Shown here piece after piece: positions 16,211-64,000 of a DNA stretch of 64,000 nucleotides. Every line of letters starts with the position of its first letter. Positions within the stretch are counted from its first letter, which is position 1. The translations under genes and the position numbers were made by a program. The notes below the pieces were generated by a model. That model had not been told where the DNA came from and made no database searches. It worked only from the letters and a program-made list of their open reading frames with translations. Origin of the DNA: Patescibacteria group bacterium (lineage in GTDB: Bacteria > Patescibacteriota > UBA1384 > XYA2-FULL-43-10); the NCBI GenBank assembly GCA_041674405.1, contig JBAYVT010000001.1, forward strand, positions 103,967-167,966, in the 5' to 3' direction.

Positions 16211-16239
16211 ATCTTTGAGATTATTTACTAAATAGTGTT

Positions 16240-16615: not shown

Positions 16616-16671
16616 CAATCTTCCTCCCTGTTTGTTCTGGATGCCAGACCTTCAATCGCTCGAAAATCTGG

Positions 16672-17806: not shown

Positions 17807-17928
17807 CTGATCTCCTGATTTTGCCTTACCGGCTCACCATTCTTTGTATTTACAAAATTAAAATACGCGAACAGGGCAAACCCGATGATGATTACCAACA
17901 AAACTGAAAGCAATATCTTTTTTGACAT
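17803..17928 (-). CDS. Small hydrophobic peptide (41 aa: MSKKILLSVLLVIIIGFALFAYFNFVNTKNGEPVRQNQEIR), translationally coupled (ATGA) to the downstream membrane protein
   Basis: Manual translation. Stop TGA overlaps the start ATG of the 16841..17806 gene. Single TM helix. Confidence 0.35.
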   Translation of the reverse strand: MSKKILLSVLLVIIIGFALFAYFNFVNTKNGEPVRQNQEIR

Positions 17929-17940
17929 ATATCCCTAAGA

Positions 17941-18933: not shown

Positions 18934-18981
18934 ATGTCTCCTTATAAAGAAATTTTATACCTATTTGCACGCAAATTCAAA

Positions 18982-48563: not shown

Positions 48564-48599
48564 AAAATGTCCTTAATTTGAAATTTTAACACTGATCTA

Positions 48600-48860
48600 T
48601 CACACTGATTAACACTGATATTAAAAAAGACCTAACACTATTATAGCGAAAGGCCAATCTTTTTAGTATGTGTTGAACTTTTCACTTTATGCTTTCAACT
48701 TTATACTGAACCGATTGAGGTACCAACCTAATCATTCTTAATTTTGGCAATTACGCTTGCCATACGGGAAGTTCTATTCACCCTTAGGGTTTTCTTCTCC
48801 CAGCTCGTCCGTTGATTGCGGACTTATGCGCTTTTTTCTTATAAATTATATATAGCACAT
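48600..48860 (-). promoter_or_regulatory. Candidate T-box-like leader with promoter upstream of ileS
   Basis: Minus strand shows TTGAAT-17nt-TATATA, then a short hairpin GTCCG-CAATCAA-CGGAC with AUC-A in the loop, a GGCAAGCGTAATTGCC hairpin, and ATTAGGTTGGTACC (13/14 to the T-box core ATTAGGGTGGTACC; TGGT could pair with tRNA-Ile ACCA). No clear terminator or anti-RBS. Confidence 0.3.
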
Positions 48861-48948
48861 CGCTCAGATATATTCAATGAGCTATTGACATAACCAATTA
48901 TTTATGTTACCCTAAGATAAAGAAAATCGACTGCTAGGGGGTCTTACC

Positions 48949-49197
48949 ATGTCCAAAGCTAGTCGTATCGTTTGCGGGATCATCGCATGTCTGCTCCTCT
49001 ACCCGACTTATCGGGTCGGAGCGGTTGCCCTGGATTCAATGTACCGTTACTCGCTACTGAGCGAGCTCGACCTGATGAAGATGCCGCAGGTCGACAGATT
49101 CATCCTGGAGATGCAGTACGGGTGGCCTTTCCTCGTGGCCCTGGCCCTTTTCGTAGGAGTCCTGACCTTGGCGTACAAGGCTCTCTCACGTTATTAG
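48949..49197 (+). CDS. Small GC-rich membrane protein (82 aa, 2 TM), hypothetical
   Basis: AGGGGG RBS, TTGACA-type -35 upstream, own terminator. ~55% GC. Confidence 0.55.
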   Translation: MSKASRIVCGIIACLLLYPTYRVGAVALDSMYRYSLLSELDLMKMPQVDRFILEMQYGWPFLVALALFVGVLTLAYKALSRY

Positions 49198-49234
49198 GGG
49201 TTTGAGTCAGATGAATTGGCCACAAGAGCTCGGG

Positions 49235-49266
49235 CGCCCCACTAGTTGGGGCGTTCTTGCTTTATT
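49235..49266 (+). terminator. Rho-independent terminator
   Basis: CGCCCCA-ctagt-TGGGGCG followed by TTCTTGCTTTATT. Confidence 0.7.
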
Positions 49267-49318
49267 ATAATCATTTGGGTCCATTGTGATATTATTATTG
49301 AAGAGTTAATAGGAAGAT

Positions 49319-49804
49319 GTGGAAATGAATCAAGAAATCTATTTGAAAATCGGAGTTGTGGTTCTAAACGAAAATGACGAAATTCTTTTGATCAAGGAGA
49401 AAGTTGATGAAGAATCAGAACCGGCGCTCAACATCATAAAAGGGACTTTTGATAAACCTCACGAAAGTATTATCGATTGCGCCAAGCGAGAATGCTTGGA
49501 GGAAGCGGGGCTTGAGGTAGAGTTTCTAGGAGTCTTGAATATATTGACCATGCAGTCTCGCGGAAAACTCAAAATCCAGTTTAATTTTGTTGCCAGAGCA
49601 AACACCGACAAGGTTTCCCTGCCAAAAGAAAGAGGCCTCCACATTGAAGGAGAAAATATCATTGGAGAATCTTGGTTTACCAACGATCAGATTGCAGATC
49701 TAGAACCCAAAGATTTTGTTGCAGATTACACGCTACGCATTATCCGAGAATGGATAGAAAATGGTAAAGTATATTCCCTAAATATTTTGGAAGACCAATT
49801 TTAA
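49319..49804 (+). CDS. NUDIX hydrolase
   Basis: Nudix box GTFDKPHESIIDCAKRECLEEAGLEV. Confidence 0.8.
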   Translation: MEMNQEIYLKIGVVVLNENDEILLIKEKVDEESEPALNIIKGTFDKPHESIIDCAKRECLEEAGLEVEFLGVLNILTMQSRGKLKIQFNFVARANTDKVSLPKERGLHIEGENIIGESWFTNDQIADLEPKDFVADYTLRIIREWIENGKVYSLNILEDQF

Positions 49805-49805
49805 A

Positions 49806-50459
49806 TTATTGCAAATACTTAATTGCAATTTCCGCGACTTTGTTTGCTTTCATACCATGTTTATATTTTGACTCAAGGAATTCGATCAACTTTTTTTGCT
49901 TCTCGTAACCTTCTTCGCGATGACTTGGTAAAAATTCGCTAAATTCATAGTTCATCACAAATGTCAGCGCCTCTTTAAAATCGTTAAAACTCTCGTAAGG
50001 CAATCCGGCTTTTTTGAACTCCGGAGCAATCAGCTTATGTGTATAAAAATGTAATATTTCGTGAATAATATTCGAATTTGGATCCGGGCGGCCGAAACAT
50101 ACAAAAAAGTAACCTTGGCCGGTATTATATCCGCAACAAACATTGAATGTTAAAAAAGCGGTCAAATTGTCCTGCGTTTCATTGGTTTCGAAGAATTCAT
50201 CAGCTTTTTTAAAAAAAGGTTTTTCAATTTTTCGCCAATTATTTTCAATCGACTTAGTTTTTTCTGCAATATAGTCTCGTTGGTTCTCAGCATTTTGAGC
50301 AAAATATTTTGTCACATCTCTCTCATTATCAGGATCAAAACCAGACTCTTTAATTATGTAATAATTCTTCGGCTTTTCATTCGAGAGGTGATTTATCGAT
50401 CCAAGCGTAGAAAAATAATTTCCGATTTCTCTCTTTGTTGAATATTTGAAAATTATCAT
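49806..50459 (-). CDS. Hypothetical protein with HExxH motif (possible metallopeptidase-like fold)
   Basis: HEILHFYTH. Start set at MIIFKYST, 1 nt after the upstream stop; the track's longer ORF would overlap the CYTH gene by 65 nt. Confidence 0.4.
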   Translation of the reverse strand: MIIFKYSTKREIGNYFSTLGSINHLSNEKPKNYYIIKESGFDPDNERDVTKYFAQNAENQRDYIAEKTKSIENNWRKIEKPFFKKADEFFETNETQDNLTAFLTFNVCCGYNTGQGYFFVCFGRPDPNSNIIHEILHFYTHKLIAPEFKKAGLPYESFNDFKEALTFVMNYEFSEFLPSHREEGYEKQKKLIEFLESKYKHGMKANKVAEIAIKYLQ

Positions 50460-50460
50460 T

Positions 50461-51105
50461 CTATACCTCGATGTACTCTTTAAATTTTTCGAGGATGTCT
50501 GACAATTTATCTTTTTCAAGATCAATTCGATAACCAGGGCGACTGTTTAATTCATCCAGAAGGTCATAGAACTCTTCCTCACCCAAAACTTTCAGCCCCA
50601 AGGCATCAATTTCTTTGTCTAGTATTTTATTAGCGTCAGCAACATTCTCTTCATCAGTCAAGATTTCGGCCTCAAAATAATGTCCCCAATCAGGGACTTC
50701 AACAACTGCAAATTCGACTCCACGATACTCGTAGTCATATTTTGTGTTCGCCATAAGGACATATTTTGTAAATCCGAGGATTTTTAGAAATTCGATAAAA
50801 TCAGTGAATTTTTTGGTCTCAAATTCAAAATTATATTCTTTTCTGGCATCTTTGCCACTCCATTTGCCATATTTGCATGCTAACTCTGCTTGGCCATTTG
50901 TGATACGGATTTTAAGATCGACCGGATCATCTTTCACTTCGCGAATACTTTTTATGCTTGCGCTTTTTATCATCGAAAAGCGTTTTTTCTTGCCTAAAAA
51001 AGTGCCTTCCTTGGAGAGAAAAGAATTTAAATGCTCAAACTTTTCCGCGGTCAGTAGCCCGCGATGCTCGACTTCCATCTGCGACATATTATTCCTTATG
51101 GCCAA
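50461..51105 (-). CDS. CYTH-domain protein (triphosphate tunnel metalloenzyme / class IV adenylyl cyclase-like)
   Basis: N-terminal EVEHRGLL (ExExK-type) and alternating charged beta-strand pattern. Confidence 0.65.
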   Translation of the reverse strand: MAIRNNMSQMEVEHRGLLTAEKFEHLNSFLSKEGTFLGKKKRFSMIKSASIKSIREVKDDPVDLKIRITNGQAELACKYGKWSGKDARKEYNFEFETKKFTDFIEFLKILGFTKYVLMANTKYDYEYRGVEFAVVEVPDWGHYFEAEILTDEENVADANKILDKEIDALGLKVLGEEEFYDLLDELNSRPGYRIDLEKDKLSDILEKFKEYIEV

Positions 51106-51133
51106 ATTTAAAAAGTAGTATTATTATTTTACT

Positions 51134-52135
51134 ATGGAAAACAAACTAATTACCAGTCTAAATAAATTTTACAGTTTAGATATTACTCGGATTGTTGCCA
51201 AAGCTAAGGGCGGATTTTTGAGTGATAATATGATTGTGGCAAACAAAGACCAAAAATTCTTTCTACGCAAATACCGTGACAAATATTCCAGTGATGATAT
51301 TGCAAGTATACACAAAAGTAAGCAATTTTTCTTCGAACATGGCATTCCCATAATCATGCCGATTAAAACCGTAAATGGAGACACATTCGTTGAAATTACT
51401 GGTAAATTTTATGGATTATTTCCATTTATCGAAGAAAAAGATATTAACCGAAACAAGCTAAACGACGACGTTTTAATATCAATCGCTCAGATGCAAGCGA
51501 AAATGCATCTTTTGAGTAAAGATGGAACGCCAAAAGTTACTGTAGAATCGAAAAATGTTTGGGATAAAAAAAAATCTTTACAAATGGCAAAGGAATTTGG
51601 AAAAATCATTTCACAGAAAAAATTATTAAATGGATTTGATCGCTTAGCAAGGAAATTTATTAGGCTAAAGAAGAAAATAATTGAAGAAAATAAATTAAAG
51701 TTTGAAGATTTGAACATCAGGTCAGATCACCTGGTTCATGGTGATTTCCATGCCGGTAATCTGTTTTATGACGATAACGATACGGTAAAATATGTATTCG
51801 ATCTCGAAAAAACGATTTTCGCGCCACGGGCATTTGAGCTTGTTAGGTCAATCATATTTATATGTTTCAGTAAGGGCTTTGAAAAGGGCATGGAAAAAGC
51901 CGGTTTGTATTTGAAAGCTTATCACAAAATATATCCGATCTCGGATTCAGAATTTCGGGCAGGATTTCTCATGAGATATCTTGATATGGCTCATTCTTTC
52001 TGGATCGAAGAGCATCATTATCTAAAGAAGTACTACAAAACAGATGTTTTATACCGAGACGATTTTATAAAACTAGAATATTTTTCCCGTGATATCAAGG
52101 GCGTGATTCGGAGAATATTAAAAAACGCGAAATAG
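51134..52135 (+). CDS. APH-family phosphotransferase (aminoglycoside/homoserine-kinase-II-like)
   Basis: HLVHGDFHAGNLFYDDNDTVKYVFDLE matches HGD..N...D[FL]E. Confidence 0.75.
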   Translation: MENKLITSLNKFYSLDITRIVAKAKGGFLSDNMIVANKDQKFFLRKYRDKYSSDDIASIHKSKQFFFEHGIPIIMPIKTVNGDTFVEITGKFYGLFPFIEEKDINRNKLNDDVLISIAQMQAKMHLLSKDGTPKVTVESKNVWDKKKSLQMAKEFGKIISQKKLLNGFDRLARKFIRLKKKIIEENKLKFEDLNIRSDHLVHGDFHAGNLFYDDNDTVKYVFDLEKTIFAPRAFELVRSIIFICFSKGFEKGMEKAGLYLKAYHKIYPISDSEFRAGFLMRYLDMAHSFWIEEHHYLKKYYKTDVLYRDDFIKLEYFSRDIKGVIRRILKNAK

Positions 52136-52143
52136 CGAAATAG

Positions 52144-55100
52144 CTAAATCACGATATTTACAATTTTTCCAGGTACGACGATTACTTTTTTAATCTCTTT
52201 GCCAGTAATAAATGCGCTGACTTTTTCACTATTTTTAGCAGCTTCCTCGAGGGCAGTTTTTTCAATATCTTTATCTACTTCGATGACATCGCGAAGTTTG
52301 CCATTGACCTGAATGGCAATTTTGATCTTATCGTCGCCTTTCAAGCTTTCATCAAATTTCGGCCAAGCTGAATTTGAAACCAAACCCTCGTTGCCGAGCT
52401 TTTCCCATAATTCTTCGGCCAAATGAGGAGCAGCCGGTGCTAGAAGCTGGCAGAATACACCAAATGATTTTTTACTAATTTCTTTCTCGGCCGACATAAG
52501 ATTGTTGAAAGTCATAAGTTTGGCAACATAAGTATTCAAGTTGAATCGCTCAAGATCGTTCTCAACAGCAAAGACTAATTTATTTACAGCAACTGCAAGA
52601 TTATCACTATCAACTTTACCAGAGACTTTGTCCGAGTTTTCCCAAACTTTATTAAGAAATCTTGAAACGCCAGATAAGCCGTCCATGTTCCAGGCGGATT
52701 CTTTATCATACGGCCCGATGAACATAATGTAGGTGCGAAGCGCATCGGCACCATAGCGCTTCACAACATCATCCGGATTGACCACATTCCCCCGCGATTT
52801 GCTCATTTTTTGGTTGTCCGCGCCAAGTATGATCCCGTGAGCGATTCGTTTGTTATATGGCTCAAGCGTTGGCACTTTGCCAAGATCATATAGAAATTTG
52901 TGCCAAAAACGCGAATACAAAAGGTGCAAAGTTGTATGTTCGTTGCCGCCATTGTAAAGATCAACCGGCATCCAATATTTCAATTCTTTGACTGATGCTG
53001 AGAAAATGTCTTCGCTTGATTCATAATTCTTGATTCTTGATTCTTGATTCATTGCGTAAGCGATGAAGTACCACGATGATCCCGCCCAGTTTGGCATCGT
53101 ATCGGTCTCGCGCTTGGCGGGGCCGCCGCACTTCGGGCAGGTTGTATTTACCCAGTCGGTAATTGCGGCAAGCGGGGACTCACCGGTATCGGTCGGCTCA
53201 TACTTTTCAACCTCCGGTAAAGTAAGTGGTAAATCTTTCTCATCCATCGGCACAGTCCCGCACTTCTCGCAGTGGATGATAGGGATCGGCTCGCCCCAGT
53301 AGTGCTGGCGGGAAAATATCCAGTCACGAAGCTTGAAATTGACTGCGAAATCCCCGGCACCCATTTCCTTGAGCTTCTCGGTTATTTTCTTTTTACCTTC
53401 TTCTGATGTTAACCCATCAAACTCTTTGGAATTGGCAAGAACGCCATATTCCTCAAATGAATGTGCTGGATTATGAAAGCGGTCACGGACAATTTCATGC
53501 TCTATCGGCAGGACATATCCTTTGATATTCTCAATTTCATCCCAATCCGCCCAGAACGGTTCGCTTTCCTCTGCCTCTTCTTTGGATAACGGCTCCTGCT
53601 CCTCATCAAGCAACTCGAAAGCCAAAGGATAATATGTAGCTTTTCTATTCACATTTTTGTGAGTTGCATGGAAATGGACTTCCATCGGGCCGCCTAAGTT
53701 TCGAACGAATTTGACGTTCTTGTAACCGGTTTCTTCTAAAATCTCGCGCTTGGCGGTATCAACGATTGATTCACCTGGCTCAATGCCGCCGATAACCAAC
53801 CCGATCCAAGGAAACTTCTTCCACTTAAGGGCTAGAACTTTGTTATTTTTGGGATTTATTACCACGGCATAAACCTGCTTTCGCTCGACTGTCTCTACGC
53901 CATCGATTGGCGGATCATTTTTATCAATTAGTTTAGGAATGATAACTTCCTTGATTGGAATATTGTATTTTTCGGCAAATTCAAAATCCCTCTGGTCGTG
54001 CGCAGGCACCGCCATCACGGCACCGGTTCCATAGGTTGCGAGAACATAATCAGCAATCCACACAGAAACTTCCTCGCCGTTTATCGGATTTATAGCTTTA
54101 ATTCCTTTTAATTCCACTCCAGTCTTGTCTTTGGCAAGCTCAGTCCTGTCCATATCTGACTTTTTCTTCGCATTTTCAATATAGTTTTCCACATCTTTGA
54201 CATTTGATATTTGATCTTTGATTTTGTCAACGAGTTCGTGTTCCGGCGCTAATACTATATATGTCACGCCGAAAAGCGTATCCGCGCGAGTAGTGTAGAC
54301 CTTGATAATATTATCATTTAAGGATTCCAGAAACTTGGCTCTTTCAAGATCATTTTTTCCGGCTCTGCGTTCTTTTTGGGCGGTAATCTTATAACAATTT
54401 GCCAGCCATTTTGCATCGGGAACTAAAAATTCATGCCCGTCCAGTTCTTTTATAGTATCTCCCAGATCATGATCAAGTGTCCCAATCTCAATGTTGAAAT
54501 CATCAGTACGAAAGACGCAAACCTGAAATTTTCCGTTGTCCTTATCTTCAATTTTACTGTAACCAAGTTCAGAAAAGATTTTTTTGCTTTCATCAAAATC
54601 TTTGGCCAAAACTCCCAAATCAACATCTGCAGGATTTTCAAAAATATTTCCGCAATATCCAGCAACTGCAAAAGTACCATTAACCCAGAGTTTGATATTG
54701 CGCTTTTTAAATTCTGAATTGATCCTATCAATCGCTTCAAGCATTTTATTTGTTTTGTCAGAAATATTGGCATTCCCAAGATCAACTTTTTCTGAAGTTT
54801 GCTCCGCTTCGGTTGAAATGACAATTTTAAAATCAATTTCCGTTCCCTCGGATCGGCCAATCCAGTTTATCTGCTGGGTTTTGATATTCTCAAGATAATC
54901 AACGGTATCGAGATCCTTGATCAATCTATCTGCATAGGCTGTGATACGGAGCATCCATTGCTTCTGTTTGCGTTTTTCTGTCTGCGCGCCGCAGCGTTCA
55001 CAATTTCCGCCGATCACCTCTTCGTTGGCGAGGATGATTTTGCATGATGGGCACCAGTTAACTGGCATCTCGGCCTGAAATGCCAAGCGTGGAGTTTCTT

Positions 55101-55587
55101 TGTCGTCATCGGCAACTTCGACAAGCTTGCCGTTGACAATCGCGTGCTTATAGAACTGCATGAATATCCACTGCGTCCATTTATAATAATTGGGATCAGT
55201 AGTATTGACCTCGCGACCCCAATCGAAGGAATAGCCAAGCGATTTCATCTGCTTTTTGAAGGTCGCAATACTTAGTGTGGTAACGTCTCTTGGTTTTGTC
55301 TTGGTTTTAATTGCGTAATTCTCTGTCGGCAGACCAAATGCGTCCCAACCCATTGGAAAAAGAACATTGTAGCCTTGCATCCTTTTCATACGCGTAAACG
55401 CATCCGAGGCGGTGTAACCCATGCAGTGTCCAACGTGCAATCCTGATCCGGAAGGATAAGGGAACTCCATGAGGGAGTAGAACTTCGGCTTATCGGAAAA
55501 ATCAATGGACTGGCCGTATTTCGCCTCTTCCCAGGCCTTCTGCCATTTAGATTCAATTTTTTCAAAATCGTATTTTGCCATAATCAA
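52144..55587 (-). CDS. leuS: Leucine--tRNA ligase carrying two inserted enzyme-fold domains (nucleotidyltransferase-like and NUDIX)
   Basis: HVGHCMGY (HIGH), CPSC...CERCG zinc domain, NWIGRSEG, CP1 editing, KMSKSRGN, 1147 aa. Insert 1 sits between EIDFKI and VYTTRADT (E. coli has 7 aa there) and contains GTFAVAGYCGNIFENPADVDLGVL, a GS...DhDh nucleotidyltransferase motif. Insert 2 after YNIPIKEVI contains the Nudix box GGIEPGESIVDTAKREILEETGY. Confidence 0.9.
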   Translation of the reverse strand: MIMAKYDFEKIESKWQKAWEEAKYGQSIDFSDKPKFYSLMEFPYPSGSGLHVGHCMGYTASDAFTRMKRMQGYNVLFPMGWDAFGLPTENYAIKTKTKPRDVTTLSIATFKKQMKSLGYSFDWGREVNTTDPNYYKWTQWIFMQFYKHAIVNGKLVEVADDDKETPRLAFQAEMPVNWCPSCKIILANEEVIGGNCERCGAQTEKRKQKQWMLRITAYADRLIKDLDTVDYLENIKTQQINWIGRSEGTEIDFKIVISTEAEQTSEKVDLGNANISDKTNKMLEAIDRINSEFKKRNIKLWVNGTFAVAGYCGNIFENPADVDLGVLAKDFDESKKIFSELGYSKIEDKDNGKFQVCVFRTDDFNIEIGTLDHDLGDTIKELDGHEFLVPDAKWLANCYKITAQKERRAGKNDLERAKFLESLNDNIIKVYTTRADTLFGVTYIVLAPEHELVDKIKDQISNVKDVENYIENAKKKSDMDRTELAKDKTGVELKGIKAINPINGEEVSVWIADYVLATYGTGAVMAVPAHDQRDFEFAEKYNIPIKEVIIPKLIDKNDPPIDGVETVERKQVYAVVINPKNNKVLALKWKKFPWIGLVIGGIEPGESIVDTAKREILEETGYKNVKFVRNLGGPMEVHFHATHKNVNRKATYYPLAFELLDEEQEPLSKEEAEESEPFWADWDEIENIKGYVLPIEHEIVRDRFHNPAHSFEEYGVLANSKEFDGLTSEEGKKKITEKLKEMGAGDFAVNFKLRDWIFSRQHYWGEPIPIIHCEKCGTVPMDEKDLPLTLPEVEKYEPTDTGESPLAAITDWVNTTCPKCGGPAKRETDTMPNWAGSSWYFIAYAMNQESRIKNYESSEDIFSASVKELKYWMPVDLYNGGNEHTTLHLLYSRFWHKFLYDLGKVPTLEPYNKRIAHGIILGADNQKMSKSRGNVVNPDDVVKRYGADALRTYIMFIGPYDKESAWNMDGLSGVSRFLNKVWENSDKVSGKVDSDNLAVAVNKLVFAVENDLERFNLNTYVAKLMTFNNLMSAEKEISKKSFGVFCQLLAPAAPHLAEELWEKLGNEGLVSNSAWPKFDESLKGDDKIKIAIQVNGKLRDVIEVDKDIEKTALEEAAKNSEKVSAFITGKEIKKVIVVPGKIVNIVI

Positions 55588-55630
55588 AATTTAGCACGAT
55601 CAATCTAATTAATCAACGCTGATAGTATAT

Positions 55631-56371
55631 CTATGGTAGGCGACAAAAAAGTACTTCTTGTTGGTAATCTTTCGTTTCTGCAATTATTTTTCCCTCCGTT
55701 GAAAATAAGTAACCACCTCCCGGAAAATCATCATCCATATTTCGTCCAGACTGAGTCGCGACAGCAATATTGATTTTATTTTCTCTGGCATAATTTCCAA
55801 TTTTTGTAATGCAATTATTTTTCCACCACAAATAGCCCTTCTCCCAGTTACGATTTTCTCGATCGCCATACAAATCAGGAGATGCGCACTCAAACACTAC
55901 TTTGCAACCCTTGGTTGCATATTCTTTATATAATTCTGGCAAATCAATATCAGCACAAATTGTAATGCCGAACCTTACTCCACCCAAATCAAAAATTGGT
56001 GATTCAACTCCAGAAGAAAAAATCTTCTCCTCTCCGCTTTGGACATTATGCTTACGGTAAACACCTACGATTTTCCCATTTTGAGCAAAAATTTGGGTAA
56101 TGTGATATCCGGAATTGTCTTTTTCTCCTATTCCAAACAAAATTGCAATATCCTTGCTTGCTCCAACAACTTTCTTTACAGGTTTGCTCTCTAATTCCAG
56201 ACATGTATCGATATAATTATTTTCTGTAAAATAACCCGTTAGACTCATTTCCGGGAACACGGCTACATCCGCCTTTGCTTTTGCTGCAAAAGAAATATAA
56301 TCGGACATTCTCTCCGAATTAATTTTGATTTCACCCTTTGCTGAGGGCATTTGAACCAAAGCTATTTTCAT
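55631..56371 (-). CDS. Carbon-nitrogen hydrolase (nitrilase superfamily)
   Basis: MKIALVQM..., FPEMSLTGY, catalytic GITICADI (E-K-C triad context). Confidence 0.8.
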   Translation of the reverse strand: MKIALVQMPSAKGEIKINSERMSDYISFAAKAKADVAVFPEMSLTGYFTENNYIDTCLELESKPVKKVVGASKDIAILFGIGEKDNSGYHITQIFAQNGKIVGVYRKHNVQSGEEKIFSSGVESPIFDLGGVRFGITICADIDLPELYKEYATKGCKVVFECASPDLYGDRENRNWEKGYLWWKNNCITKIGNYARENKINIAVATQSGRNMDDDFPGGGYLFSTEGKIIAETKDYQQEVLFCRLP

Positions 56372-56802
56372 TGTTTATTCGTTAAATATTTAACAAGTTT
56401 TTCTTTTGCAAATGTTGGATAAAGATTTGGGGTTTTTGAAATGTCGTCGAAATCCATCCAGTGAATATAGTATTGATTATTTGAATCAGTCAACATTTTT
56501 CGCGGTTCGTTGAGTTTCGGTTTTCCGCTGAATTTATCAATCAAGAAAAAGTAGCTGGTTCTACCAATATCATTTCCATTCTTTTCAACATATCCCTCAA
56601 ACAAAAGTTTTCCAGTTTCAGCATCAATACCGAGTTCTTCTTTCAATTCGCGCTTCGCTGTTTGCTCGAGACTTTCTCCTTCCTCGACTCCACCGCCGGG
56701 AAAGCTAAAATATTCTTCTCCATCCTTGATCCTACGAAACAGGAGAATTTTATTATCTTTCAATATAATCCCGCACGCTCTTTGGGTTATCCTAAAATTC
56801 AT
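56368..56802 (-). CDS. NUDIX hydrolase
   Basis: FPGGGVEEGESLEQTAKRELKEELGI. ATGA overlap with the downstream C-N hydrolase. Confidence 0.9.
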   Translation of the reverse strand: MNFRITQRACGIILKDNKILLFRRIKDGEEYFSFPGGGVEEGESLEQTAKRELKEELGIDAETGKLLFEGYVEKNGNDIGRTSYFFLIDKFSGKPKLNEPRKMLTDSNNQYYIHWMDFDDISKTPNLYPTFAKEKLVKYLTNKQ

Positions 56803-56867
56803 AAACGTCTGTTTAATATTTAGTTGAACAATGATATTTTATCATGCACATTAGCTGCATGACTAAT

Positions 56868-56956
56868 AATTTTCTAGTTAATTCTTGATATTAGAAATCT
56901 TATCGAAATCCATCCAATGGATATAGTGCTAGTTGTTAGAATCACTCAGCATTTTC
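56868..56956 (-). pseudogene. Decayed C-terminal fragment of a NUDIX paralog (KMLSDSNN*HYIHWMDFDKISNIKN*)
   Basis: ~80% nt identity over 53 nt to 56447-56499 of the intact NUDIX gene, with protein-level similarity (KMLTDSNNQYYIHWMDFDDISKTPN) interrupted by stops. It overlaps the last codons of the methyltransferase gene. Confidence 0.5.
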
Positions 56957-57716
56957 CCAGAATTACAAAATATTGAGGAGAATTATTTTCGAAAATTTTA
57001 AGTATTTTCCAACCCGTCGGGCGAATTAGTTGCTCTAATTCACTCGGTGACAGATAGAGATATTCAAACCAGGGACCCGTGATGTCATCATATCGTACTC
57101 TCAATTTTACCTCTCCGGAAAGTTTGCCCTTTTTTAGGTTACAATTAAAATATGATCGATAGGCTGGATCATAAATCTTGTCCGGATTTGAACTCTCGGC
57201 AATAATAATAGCATTGTCACTTCCAGCACCATGGAGTCGTCTAAGAATTTCAGGGGCTTTTATTTGATTTTGCAATAGGCCCAAGTTATTACCCATTAAC
57301 AAAAAGGTGTCATACTTCAAATCTAACGAATCATTTATGTTCTCAATTTGACCGATTAATGATTTCTTTATACCTTGCATCTTGCACACCCTGATAGCGA
57401 GCGGAGAAGGGTCCATAGCTGTGACGTCTAATCCTTTTTCTTGTAAGTACAGGGCGTGTCTACCTGGTCCACACCCAATATCTAAAATCTTACCTTTGGC
57501 AAAGCCAACTGCAATAATCTCATTTTTGCTCCATTGTTCTGATTTTATAAAATAAAAATTTCCCGCAGATACTTCCGTTAAGCCATCATCTCTTTCGATT
57601 AGGAGAACATTGTCTTTGCCATTAAAACAATCCCAAATCTGTCTCCCAAAGGCATCATTATTTCTTTTTGCCTTCATGTTTAAAAACCAGTAATATATTT
57701 GTAGCATACACTTCAA
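56946..57716 (-). CDS. Class I SAM-dependent methyltransferase
   Basis: Motif I ILDIGCGPGRHALYL. Confidence 0.8.
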   Translation of the reverse strand: MKCMLQIYYWFLNMKAKRNNDAFGRQIWDCFNGKDNVLLIERDDGLTEVSAGNFYFIKSEQWSKNEIIAVGFAKGKILDIGCGPGRHALYLQEKGLDVTAMDPSPLAIRVCKMQGIKKSLIGQIENINDSLDLKYDTFLLMGNNLGLLQNQIKAPEILRRLHGAGSDNAIIIAESSNPDKIYDPAYRSYFNCNLKKGKLSGEVKLRVRYDDITGPWFEYLYLSPSELEQLIRPTGWKILKIFENNSPQYFVILGKC

Positions 57717-57823
57717 TATTAACTATAATTTGAGCAAAAACACAATTGATGATTCTCTAAATCATGAAGGAATCCTGATGGCTCAGCATATTAGTTGCAT
57801 AACTATCCTTAAATAAAAACAGT

Positions 57824-58882
57824 TTGCAAGAGTATCAACTCATCAAATTGTGGAAGGAAATAATGGTAGAAGGAAAATTTTATTTTTCACATGAACATGA
57901 GCAGCATACAGGCTTTACAGACAGTGAAGGAAATGATTGGGATGTACCTGGGCGGCTGGAGAAAATTGTCTCATGGATTGCCAGAAGGTATGGAGAAAAT
58001 TATTTAAATGTTCTGCAAGAAATAAACGAGTCTGATTTTATTGATATAATTCGGCGGGTTCACGAAGCCGAAATGATAGAGGAACTGAAACAAACTAGCC
58101 TAAGAGCAAAGGATGGCGAAGCCCTAATTACGTCATTTGACTCAGATAAGGAAACGAGCGTTACTCCTGTTTCGAGACATACATATAAAAGCGCACTTGC
58201 TGCGGTAAAATGCTCTCTTTCAGCAGCCGAAATGTTGAAAAGCTCTCGGTCAAACCTTGCTGTCGCCTTATCACGCCCTCCAGGACATCACGCTGGGAAA
58301 AATTATTATCATGGTTTTTGTTACATGAACAATATTGCTGTCGCAGCCGAATCTTTAAAAGAGGATGGAGAAAGAGTAGCAATTCTGGATATTGACGCTC
58401 ATCATGGCGACGGAACTCAACAAATCTTCCAAGATGACTCAAGCGTATTTTACTCTTCGCTTCACGCTGATCCAAATCTGGTGCTTCCGCATACCGGAAA
58501 GTCTGACGAGATCGGTAATGACGGAAGTATTTTGAATCTCCCTTATTCAATTGGTATCTCGACAGAAGAATATTTGACCTTGCTGAATTTTTCGCTTAAA
58601 CATATCCAAATGTTTGACCCGCAATATCTGTTAATATCGGCTGGATTTGATACCCACAAACGCGAATTTGAATCGATGGGCTTGCCACCAGTTACGCAGC
58701 TTGATTCACCCGACTACGAGGAGATAGGGCGGATGATTGGATCATTGTCTTTGCCAACTGGGGTGGTTCTTGAAGGGGGTTACAACCAAACTGCGTTGAG
58801 CGAAGCTTTGATGAATTTTACTATTGGCCTGGAGAACAGCTTAAAAACCAAGCCATGCTTTGACTTTTTTGCTCTAAAGTGA
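57824..58882 (+). CDS. Histone deacetylase/acetoin-utilisation (HDAC, arginase-deacetylase fold) family hydrolase
   Basis: ILDIDAHHGDGTQ, PPGHHAG and GFCYMNN motifs. Confidence 0.85.
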   Translation: MQEYQLIKLWKEIMVEGKFYFSHEHEQHTGFTDSEGNDWDVPGRLEKIVSWIARRYGENYLNVLQEINESDFIDIIRRVHEAEMIEELKQTSLRAKDGEALITSFDSDKETSVTPVSRHTYKSALAAVKCSLSAAEMLKSSRSNLAVALSRPPGHHAGKNYYHGFCYMNNIAVAAESLKEDGERVAILDIDAHHGDGTQQIFQDDSSVFYSSLHADPNLVLPHTGKSDEIGNDGSILNLPYSIGISTEEYLTLLNFSLKHIQMFDPQYLLISAGFDTHKREFESMGLPPVTQLDSPDYEEIGRMIGSLSLPTGVVLEGGYNQTALSEALMNFTIGLENSLKTKPCFDFFALK

Positions 58883-58895
58883 GTATTATTTTGCT

Positions 58896-61800
58896 ATGTA
58901 TAATGTTAAGCTACTACATGATTTTTTTGTGTTTCAGTCTCAAAAAAATCCCAATCAAATTGCCGTCGTTGATTTCAAAAAATCCTATACCTATAAAGAA
59001 ATCGAAACAAGCGCTAATCGCCTTGCTTTTGAATTGACCAGTCACTCCCCTGCGCTTCAACAGGATAAAATCGGATTTTTTACAGATCGTTCGGTTGATT
59101 CGATAATTATTATGCTTGGCATATTAAAATCAGGCCATGCTTTTGTTCCTATCGATCCCAACCTACCAGCAAAGCGCATCGAATATATTTGCGATAAAGC
59201 CACGATTAAAACTATCGTTTCAGGAAACACAGAATATTATTCAAGCAAAAAACAAACAATTATTCACCTTCGGTCGATCATAACCGTCAAAGATTTCAAG
59301 TATAAAGAAATAAAAATTCCAGACGATAGAATTGCATATTGTCTATTTACATCAGGATCAACGGGGAGACCTAAGGGGGCGCTGATCAAACACTCCGGTA
59401 TTGTACAATCTATTAAAAACTTTAAAAAGGCATATCATTTTGATAAAAACAGCAAGGTACTTCAATTTGCTAGCCTATCGTATGATGCGTCCCTATCAGA
59501 GATTTTCCCAACTTTTGCTGCCGGTGGAACTATTTATATTCCGCCCAGAGAAGTGATTTTAGATATTGATAAGTTATCATCATACATTATCGAGTCAGGT
59601 ATAACAGCAGCAATATTTCCGCCTACTGTTATCGGGCACCTTAACAAAGATTCTCTTTCTTCACTCTCAACTTTAGTGTCCGCAGGCGAAGAATGCCCTG
59701 CTGATTTAGCAAATAGAATGTATGAATTGGTTCCACATTTTATTAACGCATACGGACCCACAGAAGCTTCAGTAGGAGTTACCACCTTTGAACTAGACCG
59801 GAAAATAAAAAATGCAGTTCCTATTGGCAAAGCTTTACCTGGATACAAGATTTATATATTAAACAAGGTTGGTCAAAGAGTCTCTATTGGCCAAATTGGC
59901 GAACTCTGTATAGGCGGCGTTGGAGTTTTTGCCGGTTATATCGGGGATAGCGCAAAAACTCACGAAGTTTTAATCCCTAATCCTTTTGGCGTCGGTTATC
60001 TGTATAAGACCGGCGATCTTGTAAAACAAGATGCGAATGGGCAAATTTATTATGTTGGAAGGAATGACTTTCAAATAAAATTACATAGCATTAGGATGAG
60101 CCCGGAAGAAATCGAAAGAGAAATTAAGAAGCTGCCAAAAATCAATGAATGCGTGGTTGTTGATGGATGTCTTGAAAGTAACAAGGAACACAAATTGGTC
60201 TGTTATTTTACTGCCTCAGAAGATTTAAATTTAACAGTAACACGAGATATCCTTCGTTCCAAGTTGCAACCACATATGATTCCCCAGGTTTTCATCCATA
60301 TTCCTTCAATGCCTCTGACCCCAAGCGGAAAAATCGACCGACATGCACTTCAAATAAAACCCGTCAGAATAAAAACTGAGACAGATACTCTTAACGACAG
60401 CGTAATTTCTGACTCTCCAATAGCACGCATATGGAAAGATATTTTGGGCACGAACTCCGTGTCTCTTGAAGACAACTTTTTTGAATTAGGCGGATCATCT
60501 ATCTCCGCCATGCGGATCGTCTCGAAGATTAATAAAAATACAGACTTTCATGCAAACATAAATTTAATTTTTGAATATCCTGTTTTTAATGATTTCGTTC
60601 GCGCCCTAGAAAAAGAAGCTTCAGAGACAGAAAAAGAACATGATAAGACATTTGCAGACCAAAAGTTAACAGACCCAGAAAAGTTATTTTGGGCCGCCAA
60701 CTATACTTCCAAGAAACCGGAAGCATATACACTAACTGAAGTGTTTGAACTTAATGGACAAATAAATACAAACAGACTTCAAAGAAGTTTCGAGTTTCTA
60801 ATTAGTCAATTTCCTAAATTACGCACCAATTTCAGATTTAGGTTCGATAAAATTGAAAAAGTGATTAAAAATGAAAAATCATATCCGTTCTGTCTCCGTG
60901 ATTATTCAAATCTGGATATCTCCAGAGCAAGAAAAAAGGCCAGGCAAACCCAGGAACATATTGCCAACATTCCCATGGATCTGGAAAAAGACTGGCTCTT
61001 TGTAGCCTATTATTTGAAATTGTCTGAAGTAGAAGGACTGCTGATCTTCCATGCCCATCACATTGTTATGGACGCCAGAGCAATGGAAATTATATCTAAA
61101 AAATTTTGGGATTATTATGAACACCATCAAGATTACAAGTTGGTGGAAAATATTAATTCTATGCATTCACAACCTACAGATGATGAAAAAACCTTTTGGA
61201 AAGAATATTTGTCCCGAGCAGATGATAATTTGACTTCATTGCCATATGACAATCCCAAGAATGAAACAACAGAAAACAATGGAAAGACTATTATACATCC
61301 ATTACCTTTGCGATTGGCCCGAGAAGGATCCAAAACTGCTACGGCTCTAGGCATTACCCCTTTCTCTCTTTTTCGAAATATTTTTTCCTTACTCCTTCAT
61401 CGTCTTTCAAATCAGGTTAATTTAACTGTTGGCACGGCTGTCAGCCTGCGAGATGACAACAGTGAAAATGATATTGGTGTTTTCTTAAATACATTACCTA
61501 TCCGGTCAACTTTGCGGAGCGGAGAACCAATAGAAAAATATCTAGTAAGACAAAATAAGGAATTTATACATTGCTTTAAACACAGGAACCTTTCACTACC
61601 TCATATTCTCAAACTAATTCAGAATGACTGCAAAAAAGACTCTCAGCCCCTATTTAATGTAATGTTTGATTATATTGCTGAAGAAGGCACTTCTAAGGTA
61701 ATCGGTTTGCAAGTAAAACGTCAAAGGGCCTTTCCGGCAACTGCACTTTTTGATCTTACCCTCACGGTCAAAGAATTAAATTGCGGTTTTGAATTGCTGT

Positions 61801-64000
61801 GGGAATATAACACCAATCTATTTAACGAGAAAACTCTTCGAAAATTTATGAATTGGTATGAAAATATCTTTCATAACTCAATCAATGATCTAAAACAAAA
61901 TGCTTCTAAGATCGATTTTTTAACACAAAAAGAAAAACAGTTACTAGAAGATTTCAATTCTACTGATATAACGATTCCCAATTCTTGTTTTATCCAAGAA
62001 TTTGAAAAGAATATCAGTAAATTTTCTGATAAGATTGCGGCTACCAGTGGTGACAAAACCATAGATTACAAAACTCTCAATCAAAAAGCAAATATTTTAG
62101 CAAGGAAGCTCCTGGAACATAAAATCGGCATTAATGATAAAATTGGCGTTTTAATGCCCAGAGGCATTGATCTGATCATCTCAATTCTTGCGATATGGAA
62201 AGTACGAGCCGTTTATGTTCCTCTTGAACCGGATTTTCCAGATGATAGGATCCGGCAAATGTCAATGCAAGCAAATCTTTCATGTATAATTTCCAAAAAT
62301 GAATATAGCAGAGAGAGGGTGATCACTGAGGTGCCTTTTTTGCATTTTGATAGCGTGCAAAAAAAGAAGGAAGCAGATATGGAAAATTTAAATATCCGCG
62401 GATCGATGAATGATCTTGTATATGTTATTTTTACCTCTGGATCGACAGGCAAACCCAAGGGGGTGATGATAGAACAGTTGGGGATGGTTAATCATTGCAA
62501 TGAAATGATTAAATTTTTTCACCTTAAAGAAAATACCATTATGGCACAAACAGCCTCTCATTGTTTTGATATCTCTATATGGCAATTAGTTGCCCCTTTG
62601 CTAATTGGAGGCAAAATTATAATCTACTCGAAAGATCATCAGCTGAATCTAAAGGCACTCTTTGAGTCAATTATTGAAGATAAAATCACGATCGCTGAAC
62701 TTGTTCCTTCGTATCTATTTGCTCTACTTGAACATATCAATCATCATGTCAATAACAATAGGCTTAATGATCTTTGCCACATGCTGACAACCGGCGAGGC
62801 TGCTTCTAATAAACTTGTTGAGAGTTGGTACGCTATTTATCCTGAAATCCCCCTTACCAATGCCTATGGGCCAGCGGAAGCATCTGATGACACCAATCTG
62901 TACACTTTGACAAAACAAGAAGCCATTCCCAATACGCCTATTCCCGTTGGTAAACCAATAGGAAATGTCAAGATTTACATTCTTGACTCATTTTTAAATA
63001 GGTGCCCTATCGGCATAAAAGGTGAAATTTATATCTCTGGAATTGCAGTCGGAAAAGGGTATATAAATGATCATGAAAAGACTAAGGCAGCATTTCTCAC
63101 CAACCCTTTCTCTGGCAACAAAGAACGGATGTATAAAACAGGAGACATTGGAAGCTGGAATAGCGATGGAACTATCAACTTTTATGGTCGCACTGATTTT
63201 CAAGTAAAAATCAGAGGATATAGAATAGAGCTTGAAGAGATCGAGAACCAAATTGAAGATATCCCTTATGTCAGTCAGGCTGTAATTATTGTAAAAAACT
63301 TTGGTAACTCGAAGCAGTTATATGCATTCATTACTGGTCAGGGGCAGATCGAAGAGAATCCCATACGAAGTTCGCTTCAAGCCAAACTTCCGGCCTACAT
63401 GATTCCCCAAAGAATAATTCAGTTGAATGAAATACCGCTAAATCATAATGGCAAGGCAGACCGAAAGTTATTATCTAAAATTGATATTGCTAATCACCAA
63501 GAGAAGCTTGATAAAGTTTTGTCTGAGAAACAACAAATTTTGCTTGAGACCTGGAAATCAATATTTAAAGATAACGAAATTACCATAAATGACAATTTTT
63601 TTGACCTCGGAGGAGACTCAATTTCCAGCATACAGATAATCTCAAGATTGTTATCTCAGGGCTACGAGCTAGATATTGAAAATTTTTTTGCACACCCGAC
63701 AATATGCCAACTCGCCTCTTTTGTGATTAAAAAACAATACATTGGATCGATCCCCATTTCGGAAAAACCATTCTTTCTCACTCCAATTCAAAAATCTTTT
63801 CTAGAAAAGTCGCTCGGTAATCCAAATTGGTATAACCAGTGTGTAGTAATTGAAGGCAAGAAATGGAATACAGAGAAATTAAAAGAATCGCTTTTACACA
63901 CACTTAAAGCGCATCCGGCATTTTCATTACGTTTTAATAATTTCGAACAGCAATATATAAAGTCTGTTGATTTTTCCAAATACATCTTTGAGTACTCGGC
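58896..64000 (+). CDS. Non-ribosomal peptide synthetase, modules A1-T1-C1-A2-T2-C2..., partial; the 5' end and start codon lie within the window at 58896 and the 3' end continues beyond the window end at 64000
   Basis: Manual translation in frame 0 from ATG 58896 has no stop to the window end. Adenylation core motifs LFTSGSTGRPKG / IFTSGSTGKPKG (A3), NAYGPTEAS / NAYGPAEAS (A5), YKTGD (A7), GRxDFQxKxxxxRxxxxEIE (A8) and PSGKIDR / HNGKADRK (A10). PCP motifs FFELGGSSISAM and FFDLGGDSISSI. Condensation His motif HHIVMDARA. Confidence 0.85.
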   Translation, partial: MYNVKLLHDFFVFQSQKNPNQIAVVDFKKSYTYKEIETSANRLAFELTSHSPALQQDKIGFFTDRSVDSIIIMLGILKSGHAFVPIDPNLPAKRIEYICDKATIKTIVSGNTEYYSSKKQTIIHLRSIITVKDFKYKEIKIPDDRIAYCLFTSGSTGRPKGALIKHSGIVQSIKNFKKAYHFDKNSKVLQFASLSYDASLSEIFPTFAAGGTIYIPPREVILDIDKLSSYIIESGITAAIFPPTVIGHLNKDSLSSLSTLVSAGEECPADLANRMYELVPHFINAYGPTEASVGVTTFELDRKIKNAVPIGKALPGYKIYILNKVGQRVSIGQIGELCIGGVGVFAGYIGDSAKTHEVLIPNPFGVGYLYKTGDLVKQDANGQIYYVGRNDFQIKLHSIRMSPEEIEREIKKLPKINECVVVDGCLESNKEHKLVCYFTASEDLNLTVTRDILRSKLQPHMIPQVFIHIPSMPLTPSGKIDRHALQIKPVRIKTETDTLNDSVISDSPIARIWKDILGTNSVSLEDNFFELGGSSISAMRIVSKINKNTDFHANINLIFEYPVFNDFVRALEKEASETEKEHDKTFADQKLTDPEKLFWAANYTSKKPEAYTLTEVFELNGQINTNRLQRSFEFLISQFPKLRTNFRFRFDKIEKVIKNEKSYPFCLRDYSNLDISRARKKARQTQEHIANIPMDLEKDWLFVAYYLKLSEVEGLLIFHAHHIVMDARAMEIISKKFWDYYEHHQDYKLVENINSMHSQPTDDEKTFWKEYLSRADDNLTSLPYDNPKNETTENNGKTIIHPLPLRLAREGSKTATALGITPFSLFRNIFSLLLHRLSNQVNLTVGTAVSLRDDNSENDIGVFLNTLPIRSTLRSGEPIEKYLVRQNKEFIHCFKHRNLSLPHILKLIQNDCKKDSQPLFNVMFDYIAEEGTSKVIGLQVKRQRAFPATALFDLTLTVKELNCGFELLWEYNTNLFNEKTLRKFMNWYENIFHNSINDLKQNASKIDFLTQKEKQLLEDFNSTDITIPNSCFIQEFEKNISKFSDKIAATSGDKTIDYKTLNQKANILARKLLEHKIGINDKIGVLMPRGIDLIISILAIWKVRAVYVPLEPDFPDDRIRQMSMQANLSCIISKNEYSRERVITEVPFLHFDSVQKKKEADMENLNIRGSMNDLVYVIFTSGSTGKPKGVMIEQLGMVNHCNEMIKFFHLKENTIMAQTASHCFDISIWQLVAPLLIGGKIIIYSKDHQLNLKALFESIIEDKITIAELVPSYLFALLEHINHHVNNNRLNDLCHMLTTGEAASNKLVESWYAIYPEIPLTNAYGPAEASDDTNLYTLTKQEAIPNTPIPVGKPIGNVKIYILDSFLNRCPIGIKGEIYISGIAVGKGYINDHEKTKAAFLTNPFSGNKERMYKTGDIGSWNSDGTINFYGRTDFQVKIRGYRIELEEIENQIEDIPYVSQAVIIVKNFGNSKQLYAFITGQGQIEENPIRSSLQAKLPAYMIPQRIIQLNEIPLNHNGKADRKLLSKIDIANHQEKLDKVLSEKQQILLETWKSIFKDNEITINDNFFDLGGDSISSIQIISRLLSQGYELDIENFFAHPTICQLASFVIKKQYIGSIPISEKPFFLTPIQKSFLEKSLGNPNWYNQCVVIEGKKWNTEKLKESLLHTLKAHPAFSLRFNNFEQQYIKSVDFSKYIFEYS

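Follow-up and report, generated by a model that had tools for sequence, protein, structure and literature searches.

Do bacteria of the candidate phyla radiation (CPR, or Patescibacteria), which are ultra-small, mostly episymbiotic and devoid of most biosynthetic pathways, assemble peptides without the ribosome? This question is raised by a gene at the downstream end of a 64,000-nucleotide stretch of DNA (hereafter the window) from a Patescibacteria group bacterium (assembly GCA_041674405.1, contig JBAYVT010000001.1, positions 103,967 to 167,966 of the forward strand), which encodes a large non-ribosomal peptide synthetase (NRPS), here termed NRPS1. Searchable papers describe biosynthetic gene clusters as rare or absent in CPR genomes and mostly of the kind that makes peptides by ribosomal synthesis followed by post-translational modification, and report that cultivated Saccharibacteria lack NRPSs and polyketide synthases (PKSs); no description of a CPR NRPS was found in that literature, the supplementary tables of large catalogues lying outside the search. 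The cluster to which NRPS1 belongs is a familiar machine in an unexpected host, equipped with an unusual but conserved termination module. We favor, at a probability of about 0.6, the reading that it is an intact chromosomal cluster native to a CPR bacterium and that it makes a small cationic peptide containing a D-residue, which would leave the assembly line by a non-canonical release.

Translation of the NRPS1 frame from 58896 to the end of the window (58896..64000, + strand) yields 1701 codons with no stop, as the first-pass annotation of this DNA had stated, and the chance of such a stop-free run at the local base composition is ~1e-53. The frame opens at 58878, and the ATG at 58896 is both its first start codon and the sole one ahead of the first motifs of the adenylation (A) domain. 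Because this ATG lies 13 nt past the stop codon of the upstream deacetylase gene, an N-terminal condensation (C) domain is impossible and the first module is a loading module, in agreement with the initial reading. The full-length sequence was taken from the Logan contig SRR6484325_20257 (66.9 kb), which covers window positions 47824-64000 (16,177 bp) without a mismatch and reaches position 77389; this and all other positions beyond 64000 are window-equivalent coordinates. On this contig the gene runs past the window end to a stop at 65129 and encodes a protein of 2077 aa, of which the window covers the first 1701 codons. Inspection of the longer contig revealed neither frameshifts or premature stops nor a truncated pseudogene downstream.

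Profile searches of the window part of NRPS1 recovered two AMP-binding domains (457 bits), a pair of PP-binding domains and, at aa 598-1017, one Condensation domain in Pfam, bearing out the two A domains and two peptidyl carrier (T) sites recognized at first, and the NCBIfam model for amino-acid adenylation (TIGR01733) scored 730 bits against a cut-off of 317. The A domain of the loading module (A1, 58911..60353, +; aa 6-486 by the NCBIfam adenylate-forming models) displays the motifs FTSGSTGRPKG at aa 151, YDAS at aa 196, NAYGPTE at aa 284 and GKIDR at aa 473. The A4 motif of A1 had initially been given as FDASLSEIF and is in fact YDASLSEIF, while that of the second A domain, FDISIWQLV at aa 1224, had been read correctly. 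The first carrier (T1), with approximate limits of 60408..60611 (+), is matched by the Pfam PP-binding profile in two stretches, is kept in orthologues and bears its phosphopantetheine site at Ser535 (60498-60500) within the motif LGGSSI. The following C domain (C1, 60687..61946, +; 207 bits with the Pfam profile) has the active-site motif HHIVMDA at aa 721 (nt 61056), within the HHIVMDARA stretch that had already been assigned to a C domain. Its nearest solved structures are the C domains of Txo2/Txo1, LgrA and TycC6, all at no more than 71 bits, and by these matches C1 is a divergent C domain of the L-donor type. The second A domain (A2, 62001..63476, +; Pfam AMP-binding at aa 1036-1389, with NCBIfam matches reaching aa 1527) is the best-conserved domain of the synthetase (71-77% between clade-I orthologues), and is followed by the carrier T2 (63537..63725, +; Pfam PP-binding at aa 1548-1610) with Ser1575 (63618-63620) in the motif LGGDSI.

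The last domain of NRPS1 begins at about aa 1626 (63771..64000, +) and continues to about 65075 past the end of the window. This region, which had been taken for a second C domain starting near 63780, contains instead the motifs of an epimerization (E) domain, namely TPIQ (as TPIQKSF), HHLIIDAFSW, ERHGR, RTIGWFT and NFLGE, counterparts of the E-specific consensus PIQxWF, HHxxxD..SW, EGHGRE, RTVGWFT and FNYLG. Its ten matches among solved structures are all chains that contain an E domain, including BacC (133 bits), PvdL, GrsA (5isw), TycA (2xhg) and 6ta8, which is labelled tyrocidine synthase 2. The motifs and the structure matches together indicate that NRPS1 has the architecture A1-T1-C1-A2-T2-E, so that the A-T-C-A-T part of the architecture first proposed stands, whereas its final C domain and the further modules do not. 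NRPS1 is a genuine, intact modular (type I) NRPS.

The gene for NRPS1 overlaps by 8 nt with that for a second synthetase, NRPS2 (65122-68076, +; 984 aa), which has the organization C2-T3-C3. NRPS2 is devoid of an A domain and T3 has no cognate A domain, leaving two A domains for three carriers, whose motifs in T1-T3 are LGGSSI, LGGDSI and LGGDSI; a search of the 77 kb available (window plus extension) recovered no further A domain or MbtH motif. The active site of C2 is YHHILLDG, and its best structure matches are McyB (188 bits), the C domain of BacC (aa 473-881, behind its E domain), SrfA-C and TycB1, in the range of 149-188 bits, as against 50 bits for the L-donor-type TycC6. These reference C domains each follow an E domain. 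This likeness, together with the position of C2 directly after the E domain of NRPS1, indicates that C2 is of the D-donor-accepting (DCL) type. C3 groups in the same sequence clade as C2 (BacC, 208 bits) and has the active site FHVLIMDG; alignment of the two sets H-V of C3 against H-H of C2, indicating that the catalytic second His of C3 has been replaced by Val. Directly downstream lies a gene for an Sfp-type phosphopantetheinyl transferase (PPTase; 68078-68743, +; ACPS plus AASDHPPT_N), which completes the operon order deacetylase, NRPS1, NRPS2, PPTase and is found directly downstream of the synthetase genes in every locus of the family described below.

The core features of an NRPS are accordingly present in the form of the A motifs A3-A10, carrier GGxS motifs with a PPTase, and HHxxxDG in C1 and C2, while C3 lacks the last of these motifs. 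A recognized release function, be it a thioesterase, a reductase or a terminal condensation or heterocyclization (C/Cy) domain with its catalytic His, is missing. The stretch to 77389 contains no thioesterase, reductase, MbtH-like or transporter gene, so that of the thioesterase, MbtH, PPTase and exporter genes suggested at first as a downstream check only the PPTase was found. Likewise, PF00975, PF07993 or similar domains are absent from the gene tables of the family loci L016, L010, L012, L014, L017 and L019. By these features the cluster is a member of the NRPS superfamily in every core respect except a recognizable release function.

The peculiarities of NRPS2 are shared by a family of clusters that recurs in at least 10 divergent lineages at 27-60% identity. 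Two loci, L010 and L011, show 59-62% identity and a GC content of 36-37%; L018 shows 39-40% identity in NRPS2 (GC 32%), and L012, L013, L014 and L017 show 31-34% (GC 45-48%). L017 comes from an NCBI metagenome-assembled genome (MAG) of Ca. Microsaccharimonas (Saccharimonadia) and lacks the transaminase. L013 lies on an 18-kb contig (DATMTU010000124.1, GCA_035564035.1; GC 47.6%) that was deposited as a Dongiaceae bacterium; since its NRPS, the same protein as in L012, shares 75% identity with the L014 enzyme and 60% with the Ca. Microsaccharimonas one, this label is probably due to mis-binning. In L019 (JGI 3300037076, 10001-19054) the two synthetases are naturally fused into one A-T-C-A-T-E-C-T-C protein of 3017 aa, flanked by DUF2087, HDAC, GNAT, PPTase, aminotransferase and methyltransferase genes. 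This fusion and the 8-nt gene overlap described above show that NRPS1 and NRPS2 constitute one assembly line. An exhaustive HMMER census added four end-to-end C-T-C representatives. C2 keeps YHHxxLDG and T3 keeps GGDS in 10/10 representatives, and C3 conforms to F(H/N/S)(V/I)xxxDGW(C/S)F in all ten, with the second His in none (0/10) and no His at all in four lineages; overall, the conservation of C3 equals that of the remaining domains of the synthetase. The invariance of the missing A domain and of the His-less C3 across these lineages shows that they are features of the design rather than signs of decay.

Several loci of the family differ in their surroundings. A PrnB-like gene (PF08933, the family of tryptophan-rearranging heme enzymes of pyrrolnitrin biosynthesis) adjoins the cluster in the Saccharimonadia-type loci L012 (18269-19318) and L013 (15942-16895), with a DAO-type FAD oxidoreductase upstream, and in L014 its place is taken by an ABC/FtsX (MacB-like) exporter pair; these genes hint at lineage-specific tailoring and export. 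The 8 kb upstream of the fused gene in L019 contain eleven open reading frames (ORFs) with 0 Pfam matches. The window genome seems to lack the DUF2087 gene that most other family loci carry: two ORFs of 98 and 107 aa downstream of its GNAT genes have no Pfam match and do not align to DUF2087.

To obtain the specificity codes of the two A domains, they were aligned to a GrsA-PheA sequence, and the register is validated by the return of the published code DAWTIAAICK at its published positions 235-517. The code of A1 is DASIVAAVGK in the window and its two orthologues (three clade-I members) and DGSIVAAICK in four distant family members. That of A2 is DIWELTADDK in the window, the two orthologues and one distant member, with the variants DIWEITADDK, DIWEITATNK and DIWELTATHK elsewhere. 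The codes are therefore distinct, in keeping with the earlier expectation that the two substrates differ, and they are invariant at ~60% protein identity and largely kept at ~32%. Asp235 and Lys517 are found in both domains, which implies that both substrates are alpha-amino acids. Reference codes are DASTVAAVCK for Tyr, DAWTIAAICK for Phe and DVGEIGSIDK for ornithine (Orn). The comparison suggests that A1 activates an aromatic, Tyr- or Phe-like amino acid. A2 possesses an acidic pocket formed by E278, D330 and D331, along with a bulky W239, and Glu278 and Asp331 are shared with the codes for Orn and diaminobutyrate (Dab). On this basis the predicted substrate of A2 is an amino acid with a short cationic side chain, for example Dab, Orn or diaminopropionate (Dap).

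Multiple lines of evidence bear on whether the cluster truly belongs to a CPR chromosome. The gene for leucyl-tRNA synthetase (LeuRS; 52144-55587, -), six genes away from the NRPS, encodes a protein 100% identical to MFA7243841.1 of a Patescibacteria group bacterium; its 119 further relatives are 50-68% identical, and nearly all taxon-named members of the best 120 are Patescibacteria or Berkelbacteria, two being labelled only as 'bacterium'. NRPS2 is MFA7243847.1, six accession numbers after this LeuRS on the same 395,669-bp NCBI contig. CPR-type housekeeping genes flank the NRPS genes on both sides, with LeuRS and isoleucyl-tRNA synthetase (IleRS) upstream and polyprenyl synthase and UbiA downstream. 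The same junctions are found in the NCBI, Logan and JGI assemblies, the JGI contig encoding a 100%-identical protein. The composition is close to that of the host, as had been proposed: the GC content of NRPS1 is 36.7% against 39.4% in the rest of the window, and the codon usage of the NRPS genes correlates with that of host genes at 0.73-0.81, as compared to 0.79 between host gene sets. Outside the cluster family no protein above ~30% identity was found among 5.8 billion proteins, and a search of 185,579 GTDB species genomes returned no close relative of NRPS1, the only matches being unrelated NRPSs of 21-24% identity. The cluster is thus resident in a CPR chromosome rather than a recent import or a chimera, the host assignment resting on the linked LeuRS relatives and the deposited contig.

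Beyond the synthetases, the cluster spans ~16 kb from 56.9 kb to ~72.5 kb of the window and includes several accessory genes. The one directly upstream of NRPS1 encodes an HDAC-family zinc deacetylase (57824..58882, +; Pfam Hist_deacetyl PF00850, 219 bits). Its best solved bacterial relatives, beside HDAC6, are acetylpolyamine amidohydrolases (9gkz at 150 bits, 3q9b at 140 bits; 134-150 bits for this group of structures), and its sequence shows the features of the class II HDAC/acetylpolyamine amidohydrolase fold, that is, the Zn ligands D, H and D, a His-His dyad and a catalytic Tyr. Each of the six orthologues examined retains intact catalytic motifs (PGHHA, DIDAHHGDG, AGFD and EGGY). The deacetylase is found in every full-length family locus and is the best-kept accessory gene between clades (42-45%). 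Downstream of the PPTase are a class-III (omega-) aminotransferase (68748-69986, -), a RimL/Acetyltransf_3-type GNAT (69958-70539, -) and a second GNAT (70824-71312, -). Structure matches of the transaminase are spread over GABA (PuuE), acetylornithine, diaminobutyrate (DABA) and putrescine transaminases, and its best NCBIfam model is that of DABA transaminase (NF006733, 225 bits against a cut-off of 438), with other omega-transaminase models scoring nearly the same. One GNAT is weakly similar to SpeG and AAC(6'), and the second has no informative relative. As the NCBIfam scores of the transaminase, the GNATs, the deacetylase and the methyltransferase all lie below cut-off, no specific function is assigned to them; the families of the first three nevertheless share omega-amino groups as their target, in keeping with a building block that is cationic.

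A TehB-like S-adenosylmethionine-dependent methyltransferase (56946..57716, -; Pfam TehB and Methyltransf_25/11/23) is transcribed divergently from the deacetylase, and a second TehB-like methyltransferase (71968-72561, +) lies at the far end of the cluster. L010 and L011 each have a 57%-identical orthologue of the former in the same divergent placement, and a methyltransferase also flanks the fused cluster of L019; it is absent from the Saccharimonadia-type clade, where the DAO oxidoreductase is found instead. The divergent methyltransferase is a probable tailoring gene. A scan for promoters and terminators around the divergent promoter region gave counts equal to those in shuffled sequence and is thus uninformative; a sigma-70-like promoter (TTGACT-18-TATTAT, 10/12 match) occurs at 58860-58889 (+), in the 3' end of the deacetylase gene ahead of NRPS1, in a region whose count is not above shuffled. 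Two other interpretations of the accessory genes were considered. A defence-island reading was dropped, as PADLOC returned no match for the deacetylase, methyltransferase and GNATs other than a marginal 23-bit MTase-mad2 hit. A siderophore reading was set aside, since every locus lacks hydroxylase, catechol and hydroxamate enzymes as well as genes for a receptor or importer.

These observations allow a mechanism to be proposed for the native cluster. The PPTase would prime T1-T3; A1 would load an aromatic-type alpha-amino acid on T1 and A2 a short cationic residue (Dab-, Orn- or Dap-like) on T2. C1 would then form a dipeptide, the second residue of which would be converted to the D-form by the E domain, and the E-terminal tail of NRPS1 would dock with the N-terminus of NRPS2. 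C2 could join the D-ending dipeptide to a residue on T3 loaded in trans by A1 or A2; A2, being the best-conserved domain, would be the preferred loader, in the way that CmnA-A1 loads CmnI in capreomycin biosynthesis. In place of a thioesterase, the His-less C3 might provide the exit of the chain from T3, with an amine as the attacking group; this amine could belong to the cationic residue (its omega-amine) or be a soluble di- or polyamine. The GNATs and the deacetylase could form an N-acetyl protection and deprotection cycle serving self-protection or triggering release, and the transaminase could supply or modify an omega-amino building block. The predicted product would be a small cationic di- or tripeptide derivative with a D-residue, directed probably against the bacterial host of the CPR cell or its competitors.

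The individual parts of this proposed machine are reminiscent of several characterized systems. At the junction of GrsA/TycA with GrsB/TycB an E domain likewise ends the first protein and a D-donor-type C domain starts the second. A comparable junction is seen here, in that NRPS1 has a short tail at its C-terminus and NRPS2 an N-terminal 'M..I..Y.LSP.Q.G.LF' head of the COM-docking type. However, in GrsA and TycA the E domain acts on an aminoacyl thioester and here it would act on a dipeptidyl one, NRPS2 lacks both an A domain and a thioesterase, and the identity is low. In glycopeptide synthetases the X domain is a C-like domain with a degenerate active site that comes after the last carrier and recruits P450s, and is followed by a thioesterase. 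C3 resembles it as a conserved terminal domain of the Condensation fold without the catalytic His, and by this analogy the loss of His suggests a scaffolding or recruiting function or an altered catalytic role; in contrast to the X-domain systems the cluster has no P450 and no thioesterase, and C3 groups with D-donor-type C domains.

The A-less third module finds its counterpart in capreomycin and viomycin biosynthesis (CmnA with CmnI; VioA with VioI), where a multi-domain NRPS is likewise accompanied by an A-less partner module with T and C domains. In capreomycin biosynthesis CmnA-A1 loads L-Dap, a cationic diamino acid, in trans onto the T domain of A-less CmnI, which is the only experimentally documented bacterial model of trans-loading that was found (PMC12400406). 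CmnI is among the structure matches of both C domains of NRPS2; as these matches reach only 32-49 bits, NRPS2 is not a member of the CmnI/VioI family by homology. Moreover, CmnI is a T-C protein with a canonical HHxxxD, unlike the C-T-C protein with its His-less terminal domain, and the capreomycin system includes an MbtH protein and further modules. The trans-loading of T3 is here proposed by analogy. In Brevibacillus brevis the GNAT EdeQ masks edeine, a cationic non-ribosomal peptide, for self-resistance (PMC8867987). The present cluster shares with it a predicted cationic non-ribosomal product and a GNAT, weakly SpeG-like, that could mask an amine, although the synthetases are unrelated in sequence, edeine is a pentapeptide made by four NRPSs and a PKS-NRPS, and the HDAC-type deacetylase is not part of the account of the edeine cluster in that paper. 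The best equivalog-level NCBIfam match of NRPS1 is AusA of aureusimine biosynthesis (A-T-C-A-T-R; NF047350, 868 bits against a cut-off of 2500), with which it shares a dimodular A-T-C-A-T core and a PPTase of its own (63 bits with AusB against a cut-off of 225). An identification of NRPS1 with AusA was rejected, given the score below the cut-off, the terminal E in place of R and the continuation into a C-T-C protein. By analogy, then, the machine is best described as a hand-off from E to C of the TycA/TycB type, followed by a CmnI-like A-less module and then by a His-less terminal domain.

A more specific version of this proposal holds that the family is restricted to CPR and spread over at least two Patescibacteria classes (the Berkelbacteria-like lineage and Saccharimonadia), and that T3 presents the peptide to C3, which works with or recruits the deacetylase. 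Loss of an N-acetyl protecting group from an omega-amine would then set off an amine-mediated release, by lactam formation or transamidation, of a small cationic effector that the episymbiont would use on its bacterial host. We consider this version doubtful. A rather unlikely alternative of similar standing also accepts a native CPR cluster, but regards C3 as an active amide synthase that caps the peptide with a soluble di- or polyamine, in the manner of VibH/VibF-C2 or edeine, the GNAT, deacetylase and omega-transaminase then making, mono-protecting or deprotecting this amine rather than a peptide side chain. It would account for all three accessory families being polyamine or omega-amine enzymes and for the gene tables lacking a thioesterase or reductase. 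VibF, whose C-terminal order is also C-T-C, reportedly acylates norspermidine. Edeines, too, end in spermidine, and a GNAT confers self-resistance by N-acetylating them (PMC8867987). Yet C3 never has the second His and in four lineages has neither, no gene for polyamine biosynthesis (decarboxylase or spermidine synthase) is present at any locus, and L017 lacks the transaminase. A literature search for a terminal condensation domain with a polyamine gave no match. Improbable, in our view, is a third possibility in which the product is a dipeptide only, an aromatic/D-cationic diketopiperazine or lactam, with T3 and C3 providing a 'waiting position' and cyclization couple in the style of fungal diketopiperazine synthetases and T3 never carrying an amino acid of its own. 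The shortage of A domains relative to carriers, the missing release domain and the retention of the architecture even when fused (L019) would agree with this. Nevertheless, the canonical YHHxxLDG of the D-donor-type C2 in 10/10 representatives argues for real bond formation onto aminoacyl-T3, and the fungal diketopiperazine synthetases end in C-T rather than C-T-C.

Two further explanations, both very improbable, deny the cluster either its host or its function. MAGs can be chimeric, the third-codon-position GC (GC3) and tetranucleotide usage of the cluster deviate slightly from the rest of the window, and a related locus was deposited as a Dongiaceae MAG, all of which could be taken to mean that the cluster arose as an artefact of assembly or binning, or was imported very recently from a conventional, NRPS-rich bacterium. 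Against this stand the CPR-type housekeeping genes on both sides, the identical junctions from three pipelines, the lack of a non-family relative above ~30% identity in either of the large searches, the low GC shared by the 60%-identity orthologues and the presence of another member in the Ca. Microsaccharimonas MAG, to whose NRPS that of the 'Dongiaceae' contig, of GC 47.6%, is itself 60% identical. The third module without an A domain and C3 without its catalytic His could also be viewed as the marks of a decaying relic whose genes are open but non-functional, CPR genomes being under strong reductive pressure. However, the same 'defects' are invariant in ten lineages down to 27% identity, the A, T, C, E, PPTase and deacetylase motifs are intact, C3 is no less conserved than the rest of the synthetase, the specificity codes do not vary at 60% identity, and ~12 kb of open frame is kept in a genome of roughly the 1-Mb class.

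Against the reading that we favor, that of an intact cluster native to a CPR bacterium and making a cationic D-residue peptide by non-canonical release, several points have to be set. A C-like domain that has lost the catalytic His may be inactive as a catalyst, which makes the release step the weakest part of the model, and a stand-alone A domain for T3 could be encoded elsewhere in the genome, the available sequence covering 77 of at least 395 kb. The substrate assignments rest on pocket chemistry and on comparison with reference codes, the exact A1 and A2 codes and their near variants were not found in the searchable literature, and positions 330/331 of A2 are TN or TH in some lineages, which may therefore use different substrates. 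The transaminase reaches no NCBIfam cut-off, and the named relatives of the GNATs are only weak. The GC3 of the cluster is 0.33 against 0.38 for the host and its tetranucleotide correlation 0.83 against 0.93-0.97 for host chunks, the tetranucleotide test being of little weight, since the composition of NRPS genes is peculiar in itself and the reference includes the host chunks. Finally, most family members lie on unlabelled metagenome contigs and one bears the Dongiaceae label, so that the family may not be restricted to CPR.

The surroundings of the cluster are those of a small genome, as noted at the outset, with comEC split into two ORFs, a grpE gene and a host that is a CPR bacterium. The two comEC parts (-) are a Competence/DUF4131 ORF (41158-42702, 514 aa) and a metallo-beta-lactamase ORF (40301-41161, 286 aa) with a 4-nt overlap, and the stand-alone grpE lies at 42747-43232. 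Both large tRNA synthetases carry inserted domains. LeuRS (1147 aa) has a NUDIX hydrolase domain (about aa 570-687) immediately behind the editing domain, an insertion shared by most of its 120 best relatives, some of which add an alpha/beta-hydrolase domain. IleRS (45042-48563, -; 1173 aa) has a His_Phos_1 (phosphoglycerate-mutase-like phosphatase) domain between its catalytic halves, and a separate His_Phos_1 gene lies beside it (43955-44575). The density of NUDIX domains is unusual, with three genes (49319-49804, 56368-56802 and ~72.8 kb) in addition to the LeuRS insert within ~24 kb around the cluster. Beyond the cluster the genes are again of the housekeeping type (NUDIX, polyprenyl synthase, YjbQ, UbiA and a histidine kinase). 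Farther upstream in the window, a hybrid histidine kinase (13301-16210, +; 969 aa) combines MEDS, three PAS, HisKA, HATPase and receiver domains, an elaborate form of signalling for a reduced genome, and adjoins the GC-richest stretch of the window (12-14 kb, GC 0.47).

An NRPS cluster of ~16 kb amounts to the order of 1-2% of a CPR genome, and selection has maintained it in many divergent lineages. This implies a role in the CPR way of life for a small molecule that is secreted or directed at the host, for which the cluster is a concrete, clonable candidate. The conserved combination of an A-less third carrier, a His-less terminal C-like domain, a missing thioesterase and an obligatory deacetylase/acetyltransferase pair presents a testable case of non-canonical NRPS termination. 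Even if the chemistry proves to be ordinary, the cluster would still mark the biosynthetic potential of CPR bacteria as under-called. If, on the other hand, the CPR-specific version with deprotection-triggered release is true, the cluster would represent the first pathway to a small-molecule natural product that is native to the CPR and would add a new release logic to those of the NRPSs.

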